This document shows, piece by piece, positions 1 to 11,736 of a stretch of 11,736 nt of DNA. The DNA is from Candidatus Sumerlaeia bacterium (lineage in GTDB: Bacteria > Sumerlaeota > Sumerlaeia > SLMS01), in the NCBI GenBank assembly GCA_038208905.1, contig JBBQYG010000131.1:1-11736 (forward strand). The letters run 5' to 3'. The stretch's first letter is position 1, and the number at the start of each line of letters is the position of its first letter. The position numbers and the translations under genes are program-made. Under the pieces are notes generated by a model, which worked only from the letters and a program-made list of their open reading frames with translations, ran no database searches and was not told where the DNA came from.

Positions 1-4
1 CGCT

Positions 5-23
5 TGGTTGGCGGTTCCAGAAT
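5..23 (+). repeat. Left copy of an imperfect direct repeat flanking the DUF5677-like gene
   Basis: TGGTTGGCG-gtt-CCAGAAT (5-23) versus TGGTTGGCG-CCAGAAT (1052-1067): 16 identical nt with one 3-nt indel. Confidence 0.4.
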
Positions 24-69
24 CTATTCCGAGAATCACTGACCACAGCAGGCCTAGGAGCATTCAACC

Positions 70-1050
70 ATGAGCAACCCATTAGTCCCAGTTCCCGGCT
101 ACCGGAATCAAAATGCCGCTGCATTCAACTCGCTTCTTTCGATGGCGGAGACCTACCGGAAGGTCTTTAGGCCCGCCGTCAAGAGCCAGATGAATCCAAC
201 GGCAATCGAGCAGCTCTTTCAGTCCCACGCGACTCGCGGTGCAGGTTTGCTCAATAGTCTGGATCGCCTTGATGGTGCTCAGCACTTCCAAAGCTCGGCG
301 GCAACCATACGGCTTCTCTTCGAGATCGCCGTGGAGGTGCAGCTTCTGGATATCCGATCCAAACTCGGTATTGCCGAGGATCCGAATGACGATACAGTCA
401 GGAGGCACGACCTTGCTGCTCGTTGCGCCCTGCTAAAGTGGTCACGAGGCTTTGCAAACTGTCCAAGAATAGCAGGGAATTCACTTCAGGATCGCAGTGC
501 CTCTTACTTGCAAGACCAGCAGGACTTACTAGATAGTGAAGTCGCCAAGTACACGACCACCAACATCATGGGCAAGCTCATAGCTCGTGCTCCCCGGTCC
601 GTCCGCGAAAGCAGGGGGGAAACCGGGCGTGAGACGATGCCAGTGAAACCGGGTAGAGCATTCAAGTTTCAGCACTGGTTGAACCTGAACTTGAGTGAAC
701 GGGTAGACCTGTTGGATCGCTTTGGCGATGGATCGAAGTTCCGCGATTGGTATACGAACGAGTATGGCATCGCCAGTGTATATACGCATGGCAGTCTCAG
801 CCTCCTCGGCAAAGCCGGGACCGATGACATCACAAATGGGCTCACCATTCTCTACTATTGGTGCGTGGAAGTGTGCTGCGACAGCATCATGCTGCCAATT
901 TTTGATGAGCTGAAGCTAAATACTCCGGACTCGGAAGCTTGGCAGCGGATTGCGCAAGCGAAGGACATGGCAATGAGCGCAGGGGATCACTTTCTCTCAC
1001 ACGCCCCAGAAATCTGGCAACAGCACCTGAAATCTGAAGGGATGTCGTAA
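70..1050 (+). CDS. Hypothetical protein, probable DUF5677 family (HEPN-like), 326 aa
   Basis: AGGAG RBS at 56-60, ATG at 70, TAA at 1048-1050. Motifs SAATIRLLFE (S-A-x-x-x-R-x-x-x-E) and YGIASVYTHG (Y-x3-S-x3-H) resemble DUF5677 as I recall it. More A/T-ending codons than the neighbouring genes. Confidence 0.7.
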   Translation: MSNPLVPVPGYRNQNAAAFNSLLSMAETYRKVFRPAVKSQMNPTAIEQLFQSHATRGAGLLNSLDRLDGAQHFQSSAATIRLLFEIAVEVQLLDIRSKLGIAEDPNDDTVRRHDLAARCALLKWSRGFANCPRIAGNSLQDRSASYLQDQQDLLDSEVAKYTTTNIMGKLIARAPRSVRESRGETGRETMPVKPGRAFKFQHWLNLNLSERVDLLDRFGDGSKFRDWYTNEYGIASVYTHGSLSLLGKAGTDDITNGLTILYYWCVEVCCDSIMLPIFDELKLNTPDSEAWQRIAQAKDMAMSAGDHFLSHAPEIWQQHLKSEGMS

Positions 1051-1051
1051 C

Positions 1052-1067
1052 TGGTTGGCGCCAGAAT
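1052..1067 (+). repeat. Right copy of an imperfect direct repeat flanking the DUF5677-like gene
   Basis: TGGTTGGCGCCAGAAT begins 2 nt after the stop codon and matches 5-23. Confidence 0.4.
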
Positions 1068-1085
1068 TCCCTCATCCCCGACCCC

Positions 1086-1895
1086 CTACCGCTCCAGCCC
1101 CCACCGCCGCCTCACCGTTCTCTCGACCTTGGAGAACACCAGAAGGTCCACCGTGAGGCCGATGGCGAGGATGACGAGGATGGAGGCCATCATCATGGAC
1201 ATGTCGTTGAACTGGCGCCCAGTGTCCAGGAGGCGCGCGACGCCGATGACGTCCTGACGGATGAGTTCGGCGGCCATGAGGCTGCGCCAGGCGAAGGTCC
1301 ACCCCACCTTGAGTCCGCCGATGAGTTCCGGCAGCGAGGCGAAGAGCAGGATATCCTTGGCCAGGGTGAGGCGCTTGGCGCCCAGCGTCAGGCCGACCTT
1401 GACGTAGATCGGGGGGATGTTGCGCACGGCGCTCTCCGTGGAGAGAGCGATGGAGAAGAGCGCGCCGAGGATGATGACCATCAGGATCGCGTTCTCGTTC
1501 AGGCCCACCCACATGAGCGCAAAGGGAAGCCAGCAAATGCTGGGGAGCGACTGGAGCGAGAGAATCAGCGTGCCCACGGTTTGCTTGAGGATCCAGCTCC
1601 GCGCGATGAGCACGCCGAGCACGATGCCGCCCACCGCGGAGATTCCATAGCCAACCAGGATCCGCGCCATGCTGGCGCCAATGGAGCGAATGATCGAGCC
1701 GTCCGCCGTCATGGACCACAGGGTCCGGAGGACGTCCATGGGGCCCGGTAGCAAGTAATCGGGGATGGAAGGTATCAGCGAGGCGAAGTGCCAAAGCACC
1801 GCCAGCATGAGAAGGAATCCCACGCGCAGGCCAATCTTGGTGGCAAGGCCGGGCTCCTGCGCTCCTGCCGCCGCTGGCGATATCGCCACGCTCAT
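1086..1895 (-). CDS. ssuC: ABC transporter permease, SsuC/TauC/NitT family, 269 aa
   Basis: Multiple hydrophobic helices; LPGP motif, SLPSICWLPFA, EAA-like loop (VRNIPPIYVKVGLTLGA), AWRSLMAAEL. ATG 1895-1893 overlaps the upstream TGA (ATGA). Family is secure; substrate and symbol are inferred. Confidence 0.9.
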   Translation of the reverse strand: MSVAISPAAAGAQEPGLATKIGLRVGFLLMLAVLWHFASLIPSIPDYLLPGPMDVLRTLWSMTADGSIIRSIGASMARILVGYGISAVGGIVLGVLIARSWILKQTVGTLILSLQSLPSICWLPFALMWVGLNENAILMVIILGALFSIALSTESAVRNIPPIYVKVGLTLGAKRLTLAKDILLFASLPELIGGLKVGWTFAWRSLMAAELIRQDVIGVARLLDTGRQFNDMSMMMASILVILAIGLTVDLLVFSKVERTVRRRWGLER

Positions 1896-2932
1896 TTCTT
1901 GCCGAGAACCTCGTTGAGTAGCTCGGGGCGGACGAGTGCCTTCAAGTCGATCTCACCCGCGGGAAGGAATCCAAGGTCCCGCCCCCATGCGTAGAATTTC
2001 TCGAAAGATGCGAGATCGGGCTCCACGCGAAATTCGACGTTATCCAGAGAGGACTTCAGCACTGCGTCGGGGAGGCGCTTCTTCGTGAGCACTTCCATCT
2101 GGTCGTTGAGGACGGGGGCAAGCGACTGGCGATCGGCCTCAAGCTCGCGCGTCAGGGCGACGTGGACTTCGAGGAACTTCTTCACAAGGTCGGGGTGCTT
2201 TTCGAGGAACTCCGCGCGGACGATCACGTTGGTCAGCGTGAAGTATCCCGACTCCCAAAGCTCGTTCTCCGCCGCGATCTTCACCACCAGGCCCTTGTCG
2301 ATCAGGCGGCTGGCCCAGGGCTCGGGAATCCAGGCGGCATCGAGCTGGTCCTTCTCGAAGAGGATCTCGATGTCCGGATTCGCGATGGGGATGATCTCCG
2401 TCTCGCCGCCTGCGTCCTTCAAGGTGGACTTCAGTTCGCTGATCACATAGTGCCGGGCGGAGATGTCCTGCGTATTGGCAAGCTGGGGGGTGGCGATGCG
2501 AGCGCCCCTGAGCTGGGCCAGCGTCGTGATGCCGCGCTTCTTGCTGCCCACGATCATGATGCCATTGTCCACGGCGCCCGCGATCACGCGGACTTCCTTG
2601 CCCTTGGATTTCACGAAGCCGTTCAGCGTGGGAGACGGCCCGATGTAGGAGATGTCGAGCTGACCGCCAAACATCGCCTCGATCACCGAGGGGCCCGCGT
2701 TGAACGTCATGGGCCTGAACTCCGCGATCCCCTCGAAGGCCTTTGCAAAATCGCCGCGATTCACGCCAATCATCGCCTGGGCGTGGGTCACATTGGGGAA
2801 GTAGCCAAGGTTCACGCGAGGCTTGGCGCCGGGGTTCTGAGCGCCTTCCCCGCAGGCCGCGACCAGCAACGCCGCGATGAACAATAGCAATCCAAGGCCG
2901 ATGAACCCGTAAGTGAGACCAACTCGCTTCAT
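1892..2932 (-). CDS. ssuA: ABC transporter substrate-binding lipoprotein, SsuA/NMT1-like (aliphatic sulfonate type), 346 aa
   Basis: True start is MKRVGLTYG (ATG 2932-2930, ATGA overlap with the ATPase stop), not 3505 as in the ORF track. Signal peptide with lipobox-like LVAAC; motifs LGYFPNVTHAQA, FNAGPSVIEA, YIGPSP, PQLANTQD, AWIPEPW. Confidence 0.88.
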   Translation of the reverse strand: MKRVGLTYGFIGLGLLLFIAALLVAACGEGAQNPGAKPRVNLGYFPNVTHAQAMIGVNRGDFAKAFEGIAEFRPMTFNAGPSVIEAMFGGQLDISYIGPSPTLNGFVKSKGKEVRVIAGAVDNGIMIVGSKKRGITTLAQLRGARIATPQLANTQDISARHYVISELKSTLKDAGGETEIIPIANPDIEILFEKDQLDAAWIPEPWASRLIDKGLVVKIAAENELWESGYFTLTNVIVRAEFLEKHPDLVKKFLEVHVALTRELEADRQSLAPVLNDQMEVLTKKRLPDAVLKSSLDNVEFRVEPDLASFEKFYAWGRDLGFLPAGEIDLKALVRPELLNEVLGKK

Positions 2933-3780
2933 ATACCTTCGCCCTCCCTCACGAGATTGCTTCCGGCCTTGGGGGGAGCTTCCGGATGCCACTCGGGGTC
3001 TAGTTCCCGGGCGGCCACAAGATTCACTTCTTCGCGGATCTGCGCATGGAGCTGCGCGGTGTAGGCACCCAGTTCTTCCGACTCCGCCGAGCGCGGGTAT
3101 TCGAACGGCACTTTCAGGATCGTCTTGATGCGCCCCGGCGCGGCGGTCATGATCATCACCCTGTCGCTCAGCATGACGGCCTCGCTCAGGTTGTGGGTGA
3201 TGAAGAGGATCGTGGTCTTTGTCGCCTGCCAGATGCTCTGGAGCTCGTCGTGGAGCACCTCGCGCGTCTGCGAGTCCAGCGCGCTGAACGGCTCGTCCAT
3301 CAGGAGCACGCCCGGCTGCAGCGCGAGGCCGCGCGCGATGCTGACGCGCTGGCGCATTCCGCCAGAGAGCTGATGCGGCATCGCATCGGCATAGCGCGAC
3401 AGGTGCACCATGCGGAGGAAGTGCATCGCGCGCTCCTTGCGCTCCGGCTTGGCGATTCCCGCCAGCTTGAGCCCGTACTCCACATTGGCGCAGACGGTCA
3501 TCCACGGCATCAGGCCGGGCTCCTGAAACACCACCGCGCGGTCGGGCCCCGGCGCCGTCACGGGCTTGCCGTTGACGGTGACGCTGCCTCCGTCGGGACG
3601 CTCAAGGCCGGCCAGAACATTGAGCAGAGTGGACTTGCCGCAACCCGAGGGACCAATGACGGAGAAGAACTCGCCTGATTCGATGGTGAATGTGACTGGC
3701 GATAGCGCCACAAACTGGCGCGGTCGCCCAGTTTCCATACGGACGAAGGACTTCTGAACGTTGTTGAATTCGATGGTCAT
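2929..3780 (-). CDS. ssuB: ABC transporter ATP-binding protein, SsuB/TauB/NrtD family
   Basis: Walker A GPSGCGKST, Q-loop VFQE, signature LSGGM, Walker B LLMDEPF, H-loop ITH. Start either ATG 3780 (MTIEF) or ATG 3795. Confidence 0.92.
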   Translation of the reverse strand: MTIEFNNVQKSFVRMETGRPRQFVALSPVTFTIESGEFFSVIGPSGCGKSTLLNVLAGLERPDGGSVTVNGKPVTAPGPDRAVVFQEPGLMPWMTVCANVEYGLKLAGIAKPERKERAMHFLRMVHLSRYADAMPHQLSGGMRQRVSIARGLALQPGVLLMDEPFSALDSQTREVLHDELQSIWQATKTTILFITHNLSEAVMLSDRVMIMTAAPGRIKTILKVPFEYPRSAESEELGAYTAQLHAQIREEVNLVAARELDPEWHPEAPPKAGSNLVREGEGI

Positions 3781-3797
3781 GGGGCCGGCTCGCATCA

Positions 3798-3820
3798 ATC
3801 CCTACTAAAGTGGTCGGAAT
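3798..3820. promoter_or_regulatory. Candidate Rrf2-family (CymR/IscR-like) operator, imperfect 8-7-8 palindrome
   Basis: ATCCCTAC-TAAAGTG-GTCGGAAT; arms match 6/8 as an inverted repeat. Lies just upstream of the ABC operon and overlaps the predicted -10/transcription start. Confidence 0.5.
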
Positions 3821-3846
3821 AGTGGGGAGGTGCCACGGCGAGTCAA
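3819..3846 (-). promoter_or_regulatory. Putative sigma70-type promoter of the ABC operon
   Basis: Minus strand TTGACT (3846-3841), 16-nt spacer, CACTAT (3824-3819). Good -35, mediocre -10. Confidence 0.4.
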
Positions 3847-3953
3847 CGGGAAAGGGCGCCTATGCTGACGGAATGCTGACCAGCGTTCGGCGATGCTCCA
3901 CGGGAGAGTCCGCCCCCAAGCACATTTCCCCTCAATGATCGACGAGGTGACAC

Positions 3954-4214
3954 ATGGAATCGATAGGCGTACTGGAAGCGCGAATGCACTTTGGCAAACT
4001 ACTGGATCGCGTTGAACGCGGCGAGCGTGTCGCCGTAACCCGGGAGGGTCGCCATGTGGCGACAATAATTCCTGCGCACATGCAACCGGGCGAGGCCACG
4101 CTCGCCGTAGAGCGCATCCTTGACCGCAGGGAGCGGATTCGCCGTGAAGGGGGCGGACTGAGCATCTCCTCGATCCTTGCTGCTCGGGACGAGGGGCGTA
4201 AGGGAGTCTCGTAG
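3954..4214 (+). CDS. Type II antitoxin, Phd/YefM (prevent-host-death) family, 86 aa
   Basis: GAGGTG RBS; N-terminus IGVLEARMHFGKLLDRVERGERVAVTREGRHVATIIP is a typical Phd/YefM DNA-binding domain; sits directly upstream of a PIN gene. Confidence 0.9.
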   Translation: MESIGVLEARMHFGKLLDRVERGERVAVTREGRHVATIIPAHMQPGEATLAVERILDRRERIRREGGGLSISSILAARDEGRKGVS

Positions 4215-4597
4215 TCGACGCGCCGATCATGATCGCCTGGGCCGCCCCCGATGAGGTTAGCCCGAAAGCGGATGCGGTCATGCGACAGGTCATGGTGACC
4301 GGGGTAGTTGTGCCGAGCCTCCTGTTCCTCGAGATCGCCAACATACTGGTTACGAATGAGCGCAAGAACCGACTGACTTCCGAGGAAGTCGCAGGTATCG
4401 TCCTTGATCTGGGAGAACTGGCGCTCGTTATCGATCACGAAACAGCCTCACTTGCCCGCCAGCATCGCCTCACCGTCTACTATGCCGCCTATCTGGAACT
4501 TGCAAAGCGGCGTGGGTTGCCACTGGCAACGCGGGATCGCGAACTGCTGGCCTCTGCGAGAGCCGAAGGTTTGGCCGTAGAATTCGAACCCATATAG
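4202..4597 (+). pseudogene. vapC: VapC/PIN-domain toxin, probably inactivated
   Basis: Frame reads TAA-GGG-S-L-V-V-D-A-P-I-M. The first PIN strand and catalytic Asp (VVDA) lie upstream of the first ATG (4229), with no canonical start codon before them. The usual L-T-x-Y-D-A-x-Y motif reads LTVYYAAY. FLEIAN and LPLATRD are retained. PIN identity is secure; pseudogene status is inferred. Confidence 0.7.
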
Positions 4598-4624
4598 ACA
4601 CGAAATTCCCGATACTCGGCGATG

Positions 4625-5797
4625 CTATCGCACTCGGTTCCGAAGTCCCTCCGCCAGTGCTTCCACAACTCGGCCACATTCCGCTTCGCTCATCGCGGGG
4701 CCGAGCGGGAGGGTGAGGATGCGGGCTTCGACGGCCTCCGTCACGGGGAGGTCCACCGCGCGGCCCGTAGTCTGGAAAAAAGGCGCCGTGGAGCCAAATC
4801 GATGCAGCGGCGGATAGTGGATCGAGGTCTGGACGCCAACCTCCTTCATCGCAGTCATCACGGCGCGACGGTCGGCGCCGACGGGAAGCAGGACGCAAAA
4901 GAGATGGTGGGCCGATGTCCCGCGCGGGCGCGAATAGGGAACACCGAGTCCCGGGATGCGCGCGTCCTCCATCAACCTGCGGATGACGCCGGCAACCCGC
5001 GCGCGATCCTGCGTCGCGCCGGGCAGCTTGCGGAGCTGCACGCGCCCAATGGCGGCGCGGATTTCGTCCATGCGCGCGTTGGTCCCCACGCAGGCCACAT
5101 CGTAATCATGCGAGTGGCCACGCGCGCGATCCCACGTCGTCCGGGTGATCCCGTGGGAGCGAATCAATCGGCACCGCGCGGCGAAGCCCTCGTCGTCGGT
5201 GGTGATCATGCCGCCCTCGCCGGTGGTCATGTTCTTGTTGCCGAAAAAGCTCCACGTCGCGGCCCGGCCAAAGGTGCCGATCTTGCGCCCGTCCAGCTCT
5301 GCGAGCGGTGCGTGGCAGGCGTCCTCGATCAGGACGAGACCACGGTCGTGCGCCAGCGCCTCCAGTTCCGCCATCGCCGGACAGAAACCCGCGTGGGGCA
5401 TCGAAACAATGCCCCGTGTGCGCGGCGTGATCTTGCGCGCGACGTCCTGCACGTTGATGGTCAGATCGTCCTCCGATGCAACATCCGCCAGCACAGCCAC
5501 CACGCCCAGGCGCCTCAGCCCGTTCAGGCACGCCACGAACGTGATCGAGGGGAGGATTACCTCGTCGTCGGGGCCGAAGCCCGCGACCTCGTAGGCGATC
5601 TCCAGCGCCGTGGTCCCGTTGCTGACGGCGACGGCATGGCGCGAGCCCATCGCCACCGCGAACTCTCCCTCGAAGGCCGCAACCTCCTCGCCCATGGTCA
5701 GCCACTTCGACCGCAACACCCGGACGGCGGCCTCGACTTCCTCTTCGTCCAGCGTGGTGGTGGTTAGGGGGATCTCGAACATGGTGGGAAGGAACAT
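4625..5797 (-). CDS. DegT/DnrJ/EryC1/StrS family PLP-dependent nucleotide-sugar aminotransferase, 390 aa
   Basis: AAGGAG RBS before ATG 5797 (alternative ATG 5782). Motifs SNGTTAL, IEDACHA, SFFGNKNMTTGEGG (PLP lysine), GTNARMDEIRAAIG, IHYPPLH, LTLPL. Confidence 0.93.
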   Translation of the reverse strand: MFLPTMFEIPLTTTTLDEEEVEAAVRVLRSKWLTMGEEVAAFEGEFAVAMGSRHAVAVSNGTTALEIAYEVAGFGPDDEVILPSITFVACLNGLRRLGVVAVLADVASEDDLTINVQDVARKITPRTRGIVSMPHAGFCPAMAELEALAHDRGLVLIEDACHAPLAELDGRKIGTFGRAATWSFFGNKNMTTGEGGMITTDDEGFAARCRLIRSHGITRTTWDRARGHSHDYDVACVGTNARMDEIRAAIGRVQLRKLPGATQDRARVAGVIRRLMEDARIPGLGVPYSRPRGTSAHHLFCVLLPVGADRRAVMTAMKEVGVQTSIHYPPLHRFGSTAPFFQTTGRAVDLPVTEAVEARILTLPLGPAMSEAECGRVVEALAEGLRNRVR

Positions 5798-5918
5798 GGC
5801 GACTCCTTCGGTCGGAGGCAAGGGCATCCCCGGCGGCGACGTTCAATGCTTGATCACCCGCTATCCCCTTCATTCTCGCTTGAGTAGCCCGGCCACAGCT
5901 CGGGCAAGATGGCGGGCC

Positions 5919-7610
5919 ATGCACGAACCGACAGAAACTCACCGCATGCATTTTGCCCTCGCGGCTCTCGTCCTCCTCGCTTTTGCCCCCTTCGCCTGGG
6001 CCGACTTGTTCTGGGACGACTATCTGGTTATTCGCCCCGATGGCCCCATCGCCGACTTGTCGAGCGTTTGGCGGACGTGGTTTGGGCGGTGCATTCTATT
6101 CCCGCCGGGATACGACTATCCCTATTACCGCCCGCTCATCGATATCTCCTTCACGCTCGAGTACGCCCTCGCGGGTGTGCATCCATTTCTGTATCACCTG
6201 ACCAACTTTGCGCTGCATCTGGCGAACGCGCTCATGGCATTCGCCATTTTGCGGACGCTATTGGGCGGAAGATTGCTTCCGGCCTTTGTCGGGGCGGGGC
6301 TTTTCGCGCTGCATCCGATTCAGTGCGAGAGCGTCCTGTGGCCGGCGGCGCGGCCTGCCGTTCTGTCGCTGTTCTTCGCCCAGATTGCGGCGCTGTGCTA
6401 CCTGCGGCTCCGGCGCGCCGGGGCATCGCCCGCGTGGATCGTCGGCGTTGTGGGCGGATTCGTGGCGGCGTTGCTGTCAAAGGAAGTTGCGGTGGCGTTG
6501 CTGCCCCCCGCGCTGCTGCTGTTTTGCGCACGGCGTAGCGAGCCGGTGCCGCGTCGCTGCTGGATAGCGGCCGCGCTGCTGGGCGTCTCGCTCGTTGCCT
6601 ATCTCGCTCTGAACCGCGCGGCGGGAGATAGCGCCTCGATGCTATCGACTGTCGGAATCGTTGCGTTTGCGGAGTTCGTGTTCCAGATATTCGGCTTCTA
6701 TCTGGCGCACCTCGCCGCTCCGTTTGGCTTCGCGCCGGCTTACCCCGTATGGGCATTTCGCGAGACGCACTTCCTGGCGATTGGCGCGGTGGGCGCAGCG
6801 ACGCTGCTTGTCGCCTTCGGGTGGGGCCTTTGGCGGCGGACACCCACCGCGGTCCTCGTTGCCGCGGGAGCGATGCTGTTTGGCGGGGGAGCAGTGCTCC
6901 CCGCCTTGGGCGGGCAGCTCACCGTGGCCGACCGATACGTGTATCAGGCGATGTGGGGTCTGGGGCTGTTGATCGCCGTTGCCGTGTGCCGCATACGCGA
7001 GACGCGCAAGTCGATCACGGCGGCGGGAGTCGGTTTGGCGCTGTTGGCGTTGCTCGCGCTCAATCAATCGGTGTGGTGGTCCTCATCGGACATGCTATGG
7101 ATGCGCACGGTGCAGGTGGCCCCCGATAGCCTGGAGGGGAACATCTATATGGGGCAATATCACGAGCGTCGCGGCGAGCTGGCAGAGGCCGCCACCTGCT
7201 ACGAACGCGCCGCATTCCCGCCGCGAGAGACCAGCGCCCCCGCGAAGTTCGACGCCGCCTTGTCGCTTGGATCCGCCCGCCTCGGCCTCGGCGAGTTCGA
7301 CGCAGCCGACCGGGCCCTTGCAATCGCGGAGGCATCGCCCCGACACGCCAACAATGCGATCGTTCGCCGTGCCATCGTCGCCTCCGCCTCCGGCAACGCA
7401 GACGCTGCGCGCGCCCACATCGCGCGATTCGCGGACTCGGGTAAGGAACTTCCGGGTATATACATCAACCTCGCGCTGTTGTCGCTCCGCATGGAAGGCG
7501 ACCTCGCCGCCGCCGCCGCGTGGTATGCCAAGGCGCGCGCCCGCGGGGCCGCGCCCAATGCGGAACTGGAAACTGCGGGCCAGAAAACGGTCGTTCCCGA
7601 AAGCCCTTGA
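5919..7610 (+). CDS. TMTC-like GT-C fold membrane glycosyltransferase with C-terminal TPR-like helices
   Basis: WDD after the first TM helix, YYRPL, YHLTNFALH, LFALHPIQCESVLW, ALLSKE, ADRYVY, then a soluble Ala-rich helical region (MGQYHERRGELAEAATCYERA). Start at ATG 5919 or 5946; the 5610 start overlaps the divergent gene. Confidence 0.82.
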   Translation: MHEPTETHRMHFALAALVLLAFAPFAWADLFWDDYLVIRPDGPIADLSSVWRTWFGRCILFPPGYDYPYYRPLIDISFTLEYALAGVHPFLYHLTNFALHLANALMAFAILRTLLGGRLLPAFVGAGLFALHPIQCESVLWPAARPAVLSLFFAQIAALCYLRLRRAGASPAWIVGVVGGFVAALLSKEVAVALLPPALLLFCARRSEPVPRRCWIAAALLGVSLVAYLALNRAAGDSASMLSTVGIVAFAEFVFQIFGFYLAHLAAPFGFAPAYPVWAFRETHFLAIGAVGAATLLVAFGWGLWRRTPTAVLVAAGAMLFGGGAVLPALGGQLTVADRYVYQAMWGLGLLIAVAVCRIRETRKSITAAGVGLALLALLALNQSVWWSSSDMLWMRTVQVAPDSLEGNIYMGQYHERRGELAEAATCYERAAFPPRETSAPAKFDAALSLGSARLGLGEFDAADRALAIAEASPRHANNAIVRRAIVASASGNADAARAHIARFADSGKELPGIYINLALLSLRMEGDLAAAAAWYAKARARGAAPNAELETAGQKTVVPESP

Positions 7611-7643
7611 CCCTCCGGCCTCGCCAAAGGCTCCCTGCCAACA

Positions 7644-7898
7644 CTGTCGGTTCGCTCCCAACTCGCAGGCTTTTCGAGGAGGGCGCGTCGCAAGAGGGAA
7701 TCCGGTTCGAAGCCGGAACTGCCCCGCAGCGGTAAGTGGCAACGAGCGCCGTTACGAAGCACTGGCCCCACGTGGCCGGGAAGCGACGGCTCCCAGGAAA
7801 CCCGGAAAACCATCCGGAAACGGCCACAAGTCCGAAGACCTGCCGCCAGGTCGCGCGAAGTATTCGCGCGATTTCGACTGGGCCCTCGTGGGAAGGGC
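7644..7898 (+). promoter_or_regulatory. Cobalamin (B12) riboswitch
   Basis: Conserved elements in the expected order: AAGAGGGAA, P4 CCGGTTCGAAGCCGG, ACTGCCCCGCAGCGGTAA, CACTG...GGGAAG, B12 box AAGTCCGAAGACCTGCC (7828-7844). P1-like pairing of 7644-7650 with 7843-7849. P13-like hairpin GCCCT-CGTGGGA-AGGGC (7882-7898), whose loop could kiss the CCCCG loop. Confidence 0.93.
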
Positions 7899-8164
7899 GG
7901 GTCGGGCCATGCGGCAGCGATCGCCGGATCTTCGCGTTCCGTAAAACCCCCTCCGCATCCAACCATTCAGGCCCGAACTCGCTCGCGGGAGCGGGAGTCG
8001 GCACGGTCATTCTGTGCATCGGTGCGTCCGGACCACCGATGCTTGGCGGCCGTCTCAATTCCCATCCCCTGAACGCGATTGACTGATGGGAAGCGCCGCG
8101 CTCACCGGCAGGCGCCCCCCGGGCGGCCTCAGTGCCGCCCTGCCAATCCTCAGGGTATGACCAC

Positions 8165-9478
8165 ATGAAAAGCAGTCACCTCGTTTCGTCGCTTGCCGCC
8201 GTGCTTGCCACGGCCGCTTCCACCGGCAGGGCCGAGTGGTCCTCCATCCATCGCGACGCCGGCAACAACGCCGTCGCGCCCATCGCCGCCTCCATCACCG
8301 ACCTTACGTCGAACGCGCAGTTTTCCACCGGCCTTGCCGACATTGCCAACGCATGCCGCCCCATCGTCGCGGGTGGCAGGGTCTATGCCGTGGCGACGCA
8401 GCTCTCTCCCGAGCGCATCCGGATCAAGTCCTTCGACAAGACCAACCTAACGCCCGGACCGGAGAGCGCCGACCTCGACGCGGGCGTGTCCGTTTCCTTC
8501 GGTACCGCCTCGGCTCCGCTCGTTGTTACCGCCGATGATGCGCTGTACTTCGGCACCGGCTCCACCGTGTATAGACTTAATGCTTCCACCCTGACGCAGA
8601 CTGGCGCGGCGTGGTCCACGATGCTATCGGCCACCAACACCTCGGCCGGCGCCTACTACATGATTCTGAACTCGAGCCCCGCGGCGGGCGGAAGCTCGAT
8701 TCTGGTAAAGACGTATCCCACCGCATTTGGCGACATTGCCGGATCTCAGGTCGTGTCGCTCAGCAAGACCACCGGCGCGGTCGAGTGGTATGCCGTCACG
8801 GGCGGGCGCGGCAGCCACAGCCCCGCCTATGTTGATCTGGGCGCGAGCAAGGTCGTCATCGCGGAGCGTCAGGTTTCCAATGCGGAGATTGGCCTTCGCG
8901 CCTACGATGCCGCCTCCACGGGCGCCGCCACGCCAATCTGGACCTCCTCCTGGACCCTGACGGCCGGTGGCTTTCACGGCTTCTGGGGCGACATGCTGGT
9001 GGACGGCGGCAAGATTTACACCATCACCACCGACCTTGCGTTTCCGGGCCCCGCGGCGGGTCATTTGATCCGCGTGGACGCGGCAACGGGCACGCTCGAT
9101 TGGAGCACGCTCACCATCGGGAGCGACGTGCCCCCGGCGCTCGTGGGCGGAGAGCTGATTGTCTTCGCCGACGGCGGGAATCTGCTGCGATTCAACCCCG
9201 CCACCGGCGCCCAGATCGGGTCCACGGTCAACGTGGGCGGCAACGCCTTCCGCAACTACTTCGCCGCCACCAACGACTCGCTCTACCTGGCGCAGTCGGG
9301 TAACGGCATCCGCAAGTTCACGCTGACGGGAACACTTCAGAGCAGCAGCACGATCGCCGCCTTTGGCGGGCCAGTCTCCATCGATTCCGCCACTGGGTTC
9401 CTCTATGTGCCCACCAGCTCGGGATCGTTGAACGTCGTCACCGGAGCCAGCGGCGTCGCCGACTGGCTCGGCTACTGA
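8165..9478 (+). CDS. Secreted PQQ/BamB-like beta-propeller protein, 437 aa, downstream of the B12 riboswitch
   Basis: Sec-type signal MKSSHLVSSLAAVLATAASTGRA|EW. EWSSIHRDAGNN resembles the N-terminus of PQQ-like propellers. Trp-docking repeats LSKTTGAVEW, VDAATGTLDW, FNPATGAQI. Ser/Thr/Gly/Ala-rich; ends SGVADWLGY. Confidence 0.8.
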   Translation: MKSSHLVSSLAAVLATAASTGRAEWSSIHRDAGNNAVAPIAASITDLTSNAQFSTGLADIANACRPIVAGGRVYAVATQLSPERIRIKSFDKTNLTPGPESADLDAGVSVSFGTASAPLVVTADDALYFGTGSTVYRLNASTLTQTGAAWSTMLSATNTSAGAYYMILNSSPAAGGSSILVKTYPTAFGDIAGSQVVSLSKTTGAVEWYAVTGGRGSHSPAYVDLGASKVVIAERQVSNAEIGLRAYDAASTGAATPIWTSSWTLTAGGFHGFWGDMLVDGGKIYTITTDLAFPGPAAGHLIRVDAATGTLDWSTLTIGSDVPPALVGGELIVFADGGNLLRFNPATGAQIGSTVNVGGNAFRNYFAATNDSLYLAQSGNGIRKFTLTGTLQSSSTIAAFGGPVSIDSATGFLYVPTSSGSLNVVTGASGVADWLGY

Positions 9479-9479
9479 C

Positions 9480-10781
9480 ATGCGTATAGCAAGATATACA
9501 GCCACAGTTCTTGTGCTGCTATCCGGCGTGGCCTCCGGCGGATTCCTTCCGCCGGAGGCCGTCACCGACGGCGCAGGCCAGGATCAGCTTGCCCGCAACC
9601 CCACCAAGGCCATCGCCATCGACGTGGATGGCCGCCTGCATCTCGCCTATTGGCGTGGTGGCTCCGTGACGACCGTGGCGGAGCCCTCCTACGTGCTCTA
9701 TCGCGGTTGGTCAGTCGGCTCGGGCTGGAGCGCGGAGGAGATTGTCGATGAGTCCTTCATTGGGCCCGACCGGCTTGGGGGGCGAAGTCCTTCGCTCGCC
9801 ATCGACGCCCGCGGCGACCTCTGGCTCGCGTGGCACGACCACCGCCACAGCACGGCATTGCAAGGATACATCGACAATCTGGAGATATATGCCGACGTCC
9901 GCCTGTCAAGCGGCGGCGGATTTTCAAGTATCGATCTTCGCCTCACCACCACCGCGGCGGGCGGAGCGGGGGACAATGGCTACCTCCCGATGTTGGCCCC
10001 ACACGTCGATGGCAGCCTGAGTGTCGCGTGGTACGACTTCACTGCCGACGCCGCCGTTTCTGACATCTACCTCAAGCAGTCGGACGCCTCCGGCGCGTTC
10101 AACCTGGCGGAGCCGGTATCCTCGCTCCGAGTCACCAACAAGGACGATCGCGGCGGCTCGCCCGCATTTACCGTTGCCGACCTGTCGGTTGATGCCACGG
10201 GCAGGCGGCATCTGGCGTGGGCCACGGGGACGTCGGCTGCGGGGGCCGATATTTACTACGCCTCCGCGTCCACTGGATCCGTGGCCGCCTCGCCGCAAGC
10301 GATCTCAACAGGCACCTCCAGTTTTTTCGACACACCGCGCGTACTTGCCGCAGCCACAGGCGATGTCTGGATCTACTGGTCGGATTCATCGAATGCGAGC
10401 GACAAGGAAATCCGCCTCCGCCGACTCCGCGCGGGCGAGGCCACCTTCGATGCCGTCACCACGCCGGAACCAGCGGCAGGCTCTCAGGTCCAGCCCGCAC
10501 TCGCCATCGGTGCCGCGGGGGACATGCACTTAGCATGGATCGACGAGCCCACGAATCGCGTCGTGTATAGACACTACCCGTCGCCCGGAGCCCCCGCCGA
10601 CGGCACCGAAACCATTGCCGCGGGAACCGGTCCGCTCCAGCGCATCGCGATGACGCTGAACGCCGACGGTCGGCCCCACCTCGTCATCGAGGAAAGCCTC
10701 GGATTCACCGCGCGCCGCCTGTGGCACGCGCGCCCCACCGACGCCGAGATGGGAGTGGATGGGTGGAATCTCTACAAGTAA
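9480..10781 (+). CDS. Secreted beta-propeller-like repeat protein, 433 aa
   Basis: One nucleotide after the previous stop. Signal MRIARYTATVLVLLSGVASG. About seven blade-like repeats: AIDVDGRLHLAYW, AIDARGDLWLAW, PHVDGSLSVAW, SVDATGRRHLAW, AAATGDVWIYW, AIGAAGDMHLAW, LNADGRPHLVI. Ends MGVDGWNLYK. Confidence 0.8.
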   Translation: MRIARYTATVLVLLSGVASGGFLPPEAVTDGAGQDQLARNPTKAIAIDVDGRLHLAYWRGGSVTTVAEPSYVLYRGWSVGSGWSAEEIVDESFIGPDRLGGRSPSLAIDARGDLWLAWHDHRHSTALQGYIDNLEIYADVRLSSGGGFSSIDLRLTTTAAGGAGDNGYLPMLAPHVDGSLSVAWYDFTADAAVSDIYLKQSDASGAFNLAEPVSSLRVTNKDDRGGSPAFTVADLSVDATGRRHLAWATGTSAAGADIYYASASTGSVAASPQAISTGTSSFFDTPRVLAAATGDVWIYWSDSSNASDKEIRLRRLRAGEATFDAVTTPEPAAGSQVQPALAIGAAGDMHLAWIDEPTNRVVYRHYPSPGAPADGTETIAAGTGPLQRIAMTLNADGRPHLVIEESLGFTARRLWHARPTDAEMGVDGWNLYK

Positions 10782-10987
10782 TCGCCGATCAAGAATCTGG
10801 GAAGGACACCGACCTCCTCCCCGGGGATTCCTACCTGGAAGGCACCCGCATCGTCTTCACCGAGGCATACCACCGGCGGCGCGGATGGTGCTGTGGGTTG
10901 GGATGTCGGCATTGTCCGTGGAGGGAGGACGCCCCCTGCGCGGCCTCCGCGCGCGATGCTACGCCCACTGCGAAAAATCTTGGTTGA
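10763..10987 (+). CDS. DUF5522 family small Cys-rich protein, about 74 aa
   Basis: GDSYLEGTRIVFTEAYHRRRGWCCGLGCRHCPW fits the DUF5522 pattern (FT-x3-H-x2-RG-x-CC-x2-GCRHCP). Probable start is GTG 10763 with GGAG at 10752-10755; start uncertain. Confidence 0.82.
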   Translation: MESLQVIADQESGKDTDLLPGDSYLEGTRIVFTEAYHRRRGWCCGLGCRHCPWREDAPCAASARDATPTAKNLG

Positions 10988-11069
10988 TCCCCCTTTTTCT
11001 CGGTTGACTTTCGCGAACGATATGGTCAAGGTCCGGCTATCTTTTGGAAAGTCGAGATACTCATATCTC

Positions 11070-11736
11070 ATGAAAAATTCACTCTTGATTGCCGCTGTAT
11101 GCGCCTTAAGCTCGCTCGGTTACTCACAAACCGTCACGGTGGACGGGACATCCGCCCCCCCGACCAACTATCCTACGATCACTGCCGCCCTGTTGAGCTT
11201 TGACTCGGGCACCTCGGGGCCGAATGCAGGCAATTTGGCCCCCAACGTGATTAACGTCACCACCTTTGGACCCCACGATGTTCGGATTCCCGTGCTCGGC
11301 ACGGGTGCCGTAACCCTTATCGGCGCGGCCGTTCAGGTGGTTGATGGCACCGAGGGCTTCTCGATCATCGGCGTCGGAATCAAGCCGCTTATCCTCGTCC
11401 AAAACAACGAGGTCTCCACTGGCGACGGAATCGTCATCCAGAACGGCGCCACAAACACCTTCGAGAACCTGATCATGGCGCCTTCGCCGACGGGTGCTGC
11501 GGTTGGCGACGATCTGATCAATCTGATTGGAACCAATTCCCGGCTCGACGTCATTGATTCGGTGATCACCTGCCTTCCCGCCGCATCGGCGACATACACC
11601 TCGATCGGCGATATTCCCGCGGGCTTGCTCGATGGCAGCGCCGTGGCGGACGCAACAGTGATCCGCACGGGCGACAACGGCGTTTTCGTGGGAGCCACGG
11701 GAAACACCAACGTCGTTCTCAACTTCAACAATAGCG
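11070..11736 (+). CDS. Secreted protein, probable right-handed beta-helix (pectin lyase-like) fold; truncated by the window edge
   Basis: Manually translated open frame from ATG 11070 to the end: MKNSLLIAAVCALSSLGYS|QTVTVDGTSAPPTNYPTITAAL...NVINV...GDGIVI...TFENLIM...DSVIT...GDNGVF...LNFNNS. Signal peptide plus a Y-P-T-I-x-A-A cap typical of beta-helix proteins. Absent from the ORF track because it has no stop in the window. Confidence 0.8.
   Translation, partial: MKNSLLIAAVCALSSLGYSQTVTVDGTSAPPTNYPTITAALLSFDSGTSGPNAGNLAPNVINVTTFGPHDVRIPVLGTGAVTLIGAAVQVVDGTEGFSIIGVGIKPLILVQNNEVSTGDGIVIQNGATNTFENLIMAPSPTGAAVGDDLINLIGTNSRLDVIDSVITCLPAASATYTSIGDIPAGLLDGSAVADATVIRTGDNGVFVGATGNTNVVLNFNNS

Follow-up and report, generated by a model that had tools for sequence, protein, structure and literature searches.

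A cobalamin riboswitch and the operon behind it

We analysed a cobalamin riboswitch and the genes that follow it on a contig of a Candidatus Sumerlaeia bacterium (GenBank assembly GCA_038208905.1, contig JBBQYG010000131.1, positions 1 to 11,736 of the forward strand); this whole stretch of 11,736 nt is called the window below. An earlier interpretation made from the letters alone (the sequence-only reading) had called a riboswitch starting at position 7644 and, behind it, a set of tightly coupled genes for two secreted beta-propellers, here P1 and P2, and a small DUF5522 protein. The riboswitch is real, the noted start lying inside an Rfam match of 89.1 bits, and the three plus-strand genes are indeed tightly coupled, with a gap of 1 nt between P1 and P2 and an overlap of 19 or 61 nt between P2 and DUF5522. 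The features are as follows.

7631–7861, + strand: cobalamin riboswitch aptamer, RF00174 (Rfam covariance model, 89.1 bits, E 2e-21)
7881–7899, + strand: conserved post-aptamer hairpin with a Shine–Dalgarno-like GGGAAGGG in its 3′ half
7909–7944, + strand: candidate upstream open reading frame (ORF) of 11 codons, its ATG 11 nt past the Shine–Dalgarno-like element
8165–9478, + strand: P1, the first-slot gene, encoding a secreted PQQ_2/BamB-type beta-propeller of 437 residues
9480–10781, + strand: P2, encoding a secreted seven-bladed beta-propeller of 433 residues; it starts 1 nt past the P1 stop
10763 or 10721 to 10987, + strand: gene for a small cysteine-rich DUF5522 protein (Pfam PF17653)

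The aptamer match spans the full covariance model (1–189 of 189, untruncated) against a gathering score of 31.5 bits, and the Rfam scan of the window returned no other family. A 303-nt leader (7862–8164) separates the end of the aptamer from the P1 start, where the ATG at 8165 yields a 437-residue protein identical to database entry P0008. Two GTG codons are candidate starts for DUF5522: the one at 10763, which gives the 19-nt overlap with the P2 stop, has GGGAG 8 nt upstream, and the alternative at 10721 gives the 61-nt overlap. The translations of both P1 and P2 begin with a hydrophobic, signal-like N-terminus. Because these signal regions contain no cysteine, neither protein has a lipobox, as the sequence-only reading had said. 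It had also pointed out that none of the usual cobalamin-related genes is present, and Pfam and NCBIfam scans of the operon likewise identified no gene of the BtuB, BtuFCD, energy-coupling factor (ECF), cob/cbi, MetE or Nrd types.

Recurrence of the riboswitch–P2 unit

We compared the window with 24 further loci that encode relatives of P2 (identified here by L numbers), taken from species-representative genomes and amounting to approx. 332 kb. Seventeen are labelled Candidatus Sumerlaeota, two Omnitrophota and two Hinthialibacterota (two contigs of one genome), and three are unlabelled. Five loci (L002, L003, L004, L021 and L022), in which the contig begins within ~130 nt of P2 or inside it, are untestable for an upstream element and were excluded. 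The sequence-only reading had proposed asking whether homologues recurrently follow B12 riboswitches. They do: 18 of the 19 testable loci have a same-strand cobalamin riboswitch ahead of P2, with scores of 61.7–115.7 bits. All 20 riboswitch matches in the ~332 kb are on the P2 strand and lie within or beside the P2 cluster, with none elsewhere in the flanks; 19 are upstream of P2 (two of these in L011), and the remaining one, in L022, follows the P2 fragment at a distance of 1.3 kb. This linkage is observed directly, and it persists despite deep divergence and rearranged neighbours: the P2 proteins are 31–47% identical to that of the window, the median end branch of their tree is 0.6 changes per site, and the flanking genes vary by locus. 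The counts refer to these loci. The P2 family itself is larger: an exhaustive profile search gave 297 matches at E<=1e-30 and roughly 100 full-length P2 clusters, where word-indexed searches had returned only 6–7 relatives of P1 and P2.

What lies between the riboswitch and P2 is far less constant. For the 19 loci with a riboswitch before P2, the window included, the occupants of this first slot are as follows.

P1-type PQQ_2 propeller: window and, as P1 orthologues, L007, L018, L019 and L024, with longer forms in L012 and L014 (seven loci)
Secreted family of roughly 380 residues with no Pfam match: L001, L005 and L008, with longer forms in L006 and L009 (five loci)
Third family: L015 (three repeats), L017 and L020 (three loci)
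Nothing, the riboswitch directly preceding P2: L010, L011, L013 and L016 (four loci)

The unit behind the riboswitch has P2 as its conserved core, and at least three interchangeable families can fill the first slot, P1 among them. The sequence-only reading had treated the two propellers as equal partners, a view we abandon, P2 being conserved and P1 both swappable and absent in four loci. DUF5522 also loses the role of regular partner that it had been given. The window protein matches PF17653 with 55.1 bits (cutoff 25, E 7.7e-15), and 30 of its 30 Atlas matches are DUF5522 clusters (0.94 for the best three), these neighbours being stand-alone proteins of 62–73 residues from Bacteroidota and Acidobacteriota. 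Apart from the window, L012 is the only locus in which a DUF5522 gene comes after P2 (there with a 4-nt overlap), and the gene is therefore an accessory. In L012, the P1-type gene and P2 are separated by an inserted gene for an IS200-like transposase (L012:3503–3949; Y1_Tnp, E 7.8e-24).

A more frequent companion of P2 than DUF5522 is a pilin-like gene, which accompanies it in 10 of the 24 loci. It follows P2 in L001, L005, L013, L015, L016, L018, L019 and L021 and precedes it in L017; in L022 (L022:2375–3324) it stands directly behind a cobalamin riboswitch of its own (113.7 bits), and upstream of this unit are a P2 fragment with a frameshift and a radical SAM/SPASM gene. The encoded proteins, of ~220–235 residues, carry a prepilin N-terminal methylation motif and are 59–83% identical between loci. 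The window has no such gene. The most extensive arrangement is found in L019, where the riboswitch heads a co-oriented run of a P1-type gene, P2, the pilin-like gene and genes matching Peripla_BP_2, ABC_tran and FecCD. In NCBIfam, the Peripla_BP_2 gene scores best as BtuF and the FecCD gene as BtuC, and for the ABC_tran gene corrinoid ATPase comes second to heme ATPase; every one of these scores falls below the equivalog cutoff. Of the idea that homologues might sit near btuB or btuF, the second half is borne out in one locus, by the BtuF/BtuD/BtuC-like genes in the L019 operon; no BtuB was seen among the scanned neighbours.

Regulatory genes of other kinds also occur beside P2. NikR genes lie immediately downstream of it on the opposite, minus strand in L004 (L004:1411–1821) and L009 (L009:10339–10749), each adjoining a gene for a secreted, cysteine-containing protein of ~195 residues without a family, and in L011 a gene for a DtxR-type repressor follows P2. 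L011 also has tandem riboswitch units: a threshold-level riboswitch (31.5 bits), with a gene for a secreted 272-residue protein without a family behind it (L011:8611–9555), comes shortly before the strong riboswitch that leads into P2.

The linkage might reflect inherited synteny, P1 and P2 being ordinary envelope proteins (for instance a BamB-like assembly factor and a cell-surface propeller) and only the leader being regulated. This would be in keeping with the origin of all loci in one lineage, with the riboswitch-free P2 paralogue in L023, and with a window that has no recognisable terminator or clear design for sequestering the ribosome-binding site before P1. It is contradicted, however, by a link that outlasts gene swaps: the riboswitch stays with P2 while the first slot changes among three families or empties and the flanks differ completely. 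In addition, P1 scores far below the BamB equivalog cutoffs, and L006, L007, L008 and L010 have terminator-like hairpins past the aptamer. We regard inherited synteny as highly improbable.

In the window, a scan of 7300–11736 found no sigma-70-like promoter and a single terminator-like site, which lies within P1, and shuffled sequences give more such sites. The leader hairpin at 7881–7899 has counterparts elsewhere: the motif is found ~25 nt 3′ of the aptamer in 11 of the 20 riboswitch leaders, its 3′ half bearing GGGAAAGG, and RNAalifold predicts seven pairs, four of which have at least one compensatory change. The hairpin is probably part of the expression platform, a role that we infer. An ATG is present at comparable spacing past it in 9 of 11 aligned leader segments; the peptide encoded at 7909–7944 shows no conservation in a comparison with L018, and the assignment of this stretch as an upstream ORF is speculative. 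We also considered a kissing loop between the hairpin loop and a loop of the aptamer, and dropped it because a complement is present in only 5 of the 11 leaders and at inconsistent positions.

The remaining features of the window flank the operon. The next gene on the plus strand (11071–11735), 83 nt past DUF5522, encodes a secreted protein without a family, and the G+C content around it is 0.57 versus about 0.65. Upstream of the riboswitch, the window has a DegT/DnrJ/EryC1 aminotransferase gene (4625–5827, minus strand; E 7.7e-102); L018 also has a DegT gene ahead of its riboswitch, a hint of local synteny. Positions 3954–4597 hold a probable Phd/PIN toxin–antitoxin pair (Phd TIGR01552, E 2.8e-8; the PIN domain match is weak, E 0.0017 and below cutoff), and the minus-strand genes at 1086–3505, for an ATP-binding cassette (ABC) permease (BPD_transp_1) and an NMT1-like substrate-binding protein, appear to be unrelated to the operon. 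Outside the window, L001:16534–16580 matches the Acido-Lenti-1 small RNA (42 bits against a gathering score of 37).

Folds and relatives of the exported proteins

P1 matches the Pfam family PQQ_2 (PF13360) with 37.1 bits (cutoff 27.6), and its orthologues do so with 47–95 bits. When a profile of 10 P1 sequences was compared with the Protein Data Bank (PDB), the best matches were BamB (E 5e-16), tetrathionate hydrolase and pyrroloquinoline quinone (PQQ) dehydrogenases. Assignment of P1 as a BamB equivalog was rejected, its scores being 15.3–15.4 bits against NCBIfam cutoffs of 423 and 285.

P2 matches no Pfam family, even at E<=10. AlphaFold2, given an alignment of 78 sequences, predicts a beta-propeller with high confidence (predicted local distance difference test, pLDDT, 93.6; predicted template modelling score, pTM, 0.91). 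The sequence contains seven W-x-D strand repeats (residues 53–59, 114–120, 180–186, 243–249, 296–302, 349–356 and 399–406), and five residues are invariant across the 78 sequences: W118, D120, R122, W184 and D186. They sit in blades 2 and 3, where the second strand ends. Such positions usually face one entrance of the central channel in propellers, and the invariant tryptophan, aspartate and arginine residues of P2 would do the same. The best Foldseek matches to P2 in the PDB are the GH145 hydrolases 5mvh, 5mum and 4irt (template modelling score TMq 0.61), and other matches include Photorhabdus lectins, sialidases and PL24/PL42 lyases. At the sequence level, just two PDB entries matched the P2 profile at E<=10, namely 4irt (E 0.011) and a xylanase (E 0.028). 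The NCBIfam PDIAV lipoprotein model was considered for P2 and rejected (48.4 bits, in one stretch, against a cutoff of 90). A predicted complex of P1 (residues 24–437) and P2 (21–433) scored 0.00, a "no answer" that is uninformative either way.

These relatives raise the question of whether P2, and perhaps P1, could be a secreted enzyme with corrinoids or their carriers as substrate, one that might, for instance, release or remodel cobamides outside the cytoplasm; control by B12 would then follow from its product feeding uptake. The best structural matches of P2 (GH145 hydrolases, sialidases and PL24/PL42 lyases) and its sole sequence matches in the PDB (4irt and the xylanase) all fit such an activity, as do the tetrathionate hydrolase and PQQ dehydrogenases among the profile relatives of P1, and invariant tryptophan, aspartate and arginine residues at strand ends would also be expected of a catalytic site. 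A TM score of ~0.6 at 10–16% identity, however, amounts to generic propeller similarity, so that the likeness of P2 to the GH145 and sialidase enzymes consists of the fold plus one borderline match to 4irt, and in some loci the first slot seemingly holds binder-like domains. We know of no extracellular corrinoid-processing enzyme with a P2-type fold, and consider the enzymatic alternative unlikely.

The same conserved region of P2 bears on whether the module might acquire cobalt or nickel and not a corrinoid. Cobalamin riboswitches also control cobalt transporters, NikR genes adjoin P2 in two loci (L004 and L009) and a gene for a DtxR-type repressor comes after it in a third (L011), and P2 contains a W-H-D-H-R-H stretch. 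Within that stretch, however, only W118, D120 and R122 are conserved, each histidine being less than 90% conserved in the 78 sequences. No cobalt or nickel permease (CbiMNQO or NiCoT) was seen, and the ABC system of L019 scores best as BtuF and BtuC. Metal acquisition in place of corrinoid acquisition is, in our judgement, distinctly improbable.

The binder-like character of some first-slot proteins comes from the third family. The nearest named Atlas clusters are DUF4430 (score 0.88), and SCO2322_fam is matched with E 7.8e-6, below its cutoff. The AlphaFold2 model, made from a five-row alignment, is poor (pLDDT 44.6); Foldseek with this model gave intrinsic factor, transcobalamin and 3u7z as its top seven rows, at E 0.4–1.2. 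A profile of the family found only a chance-level lectin match in the PDB, and a word-indexed search with the first-slot domain of L020 found three relatives. DUF4430 is described in PMC4350170 as the B12-binding beta domain of transcobalamin. Taken together, these matches are weak leads to a resemblance between the first-slot proteins of L015, L017 and L020 and that domain.

P1-type and P2-type proteins also share a C-terminal tail, (D/E/G)-W-x-x-(Y/W/F)-(E/K/Q), encoded in the window at 9460–9478 and 10755–10781 and found as well in L007, L015, L019 and L024. The strict pattern occurs in 10 of 536 ORFs of at least 150 residues, nine of which are of the P1 or P2 class; a tail of this form also ends an unrelated 864-residue protein (L005:8843–11437). 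In the P2 model the tail lies outside the propeller and is predicted with low confidence, and W429 within it reaches at least 90% conservation. The tail may serve as a tag for sorting or docking.

A possible role in cobamide acquisition and comparison with known systems

Cobalamin riboswitches repress genes for cobamide uptake or synthesis, for cobalt supply or for B12-independent isoenzymes. Since the proteins under riboswitch control are exported and one genome links the unit to a BtuFCD-like importer, we lean, with modest confidence and on comparative evidence, towards reading the operon as a BtuG-independent module for cobamide acquisition at the envelope stage, with P2 as its core and P1 as an exchangeable accessory. 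The riboswitch would bind a cobamide, so that an abundant intracellular cofactor would shut down the plus-strand operon of exported proteins. P2, Sec-exported and non-lipidated, would capture corrinoids or pass them towards a BtuFCD-type importer in the inner membrane, P1 would be an interchangeable accessory of the same pathway, perhaps an upstream binder or an alternative one, and DUF5522, which has no signal peptide, would be an occasional cytoplasmic passenger. Ligand-dependent repression, export, corrinoid binding and hand-off are all steps that we infer.

Several observations weigh against this assignment. The 18 linked loci are not independent events because all come from one lineage, and L023 is an exception to the linkage: its P2 paralogue fragment lies 20 nt past the argininosuccinate synthase gene (argG), with no riboswitch in the 10 kb upstream. 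No terminator-like site is found in the window leader (7862–8164), which bears on the regulatory mechanism. BtuFCD-like genes are confined to L019, with none in the window or the other 23 loci as far as these were scanned, and no BtuB/TonB-type gene was seen in the window or among the scanned neighbours, a scan that did not take in every ORF. The nearest structures to P2 (hydrolases and lyases, sialidases and lectins) would fit an enzyme or a glycan binder, to judge from the predicted model. The third first-slot family has no Foldseek match at E<=0.001 and no Pfam match, DUF4430 (PF14478) included, even at E<=10. Finally, BtuG is absent both from the matches of the P2 (78 sequences) and P1 (10 sequences) profiles to all PDB chains at E<=10 and from the 49 Foldseek matches listed for P2.

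A more ambitious version of envelope-stage acquisition takes in the pilin-like protein. Sumerlaeota may possess a corrinoid-capture apparatus unrelated to BtuB and BtuG, with a core of P2 and the pilin-like protein and with interchangeable binders, feeding BtuFCD. P2 and the dedicated, highly conserved pilin-like protein would form a pilus- or bindosome-like scaffold in the envelope; the binders would be the PQQ-type propeller, the family of roughly 380 residues or the transcobalamin-beta-like domains; and the W-x-x-Y-E tail of P1- and P2-type proteins would act as a docking or sorting tag. We hold this version to be possible, if rather doubtful.

Cobamide acquisition shapes microbial communities, and to our knowledge its extracellular and envelope steps outside Bacteroidota are largely unknown. 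The exported proteins of this locus form a conserved set, uncharacterised and marked by a riboswitch, within an uncultured phylum, and the recurrent link between riboswitch and P2 points to a possible undescribed route of B12 acquisition there. If P2 or its partners do bind corrinoids, a B12 capture system would have been invented independently here, and functions would be assigned to several protein families that lack one. Our literature searches found no description of the P1/P2 riboswitch system and no paper mentioning DUF5522. Nothing relevant appeared for Sumerlaeota and cobalamin in titles and the beginnings of abstracts, or for cobalamin riboswitch and pilin in titles, and a general genomics paper on Sumerlaeota does not mention B12 in its main text by a term search (PMC8092238). 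For cobalamin riboswitch and beta-propeller, the review of BtuG (PMC13616437) was alone.

Among characterised proteins, P1 most resembles the BamB/PQQ_2 propellers, through its PQQ_2 match and a profile E of 5e-16 to BamB, but it fails the equivalog cutoffs, has no lipobox and belongs to a riboswitch operon. P2 resembles the GH145/PL42/sialidase-like propellers (4irt, 5mvh, 5mum and 7esk), with TMq 0.57–0.61 and Foldseek E of 4e-13 to 5e-10 at an identity of 10–16%, the sequence match to 4irt (E 0.011) being borderline; we know of no B12 regulation of these enzymes. In archaea, the bindosome consists of substrate-binding proteins with type IV pilin-like signal peptides. The likeness, by analogy only, lies in the joint encoding of uptake-related binding proteins and a pilin-like protein, but here the latter is the product of a separate gene, one that is absent from the window. 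The importer genes of L019 are akin to BtuFCD by their best NCBIfam names, at sub-cutoff scores.

The closest parallel in biological setting is that of Bacteroides, which has riboswitch-controlled surface binders; among them is BtuG, whose seven-bladed propeller binds B12 on one face and has structures such as 8BMZ in the PDB (review PMC13616437). The BtuG, BtuH, BtuJ and BtuK proteins of Bacteroides thetaiotaomicron are likewise exported accessory proteins behind cobalamin riboswitches, and BtuG and P2 share the seven-bladed architecture. They differ in that P1 and P2 have no lipobox and no BtuB partner gene was seen, and in that the repeat type of P2 is GH145/sialidase-like and its companions are the pilin-like gene and, in one locus, BtuFDC. 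The PDB profile searches show the propellers to be unrelated to BtuG in sequence, in line with the suggestion of the sequence-only reading that they were recruited independently. By analogy, then, the Sumerlaeota system would resemble the BtuG/H/J/K surface relay of Bacteroides in function while being built from unrelated proteins.

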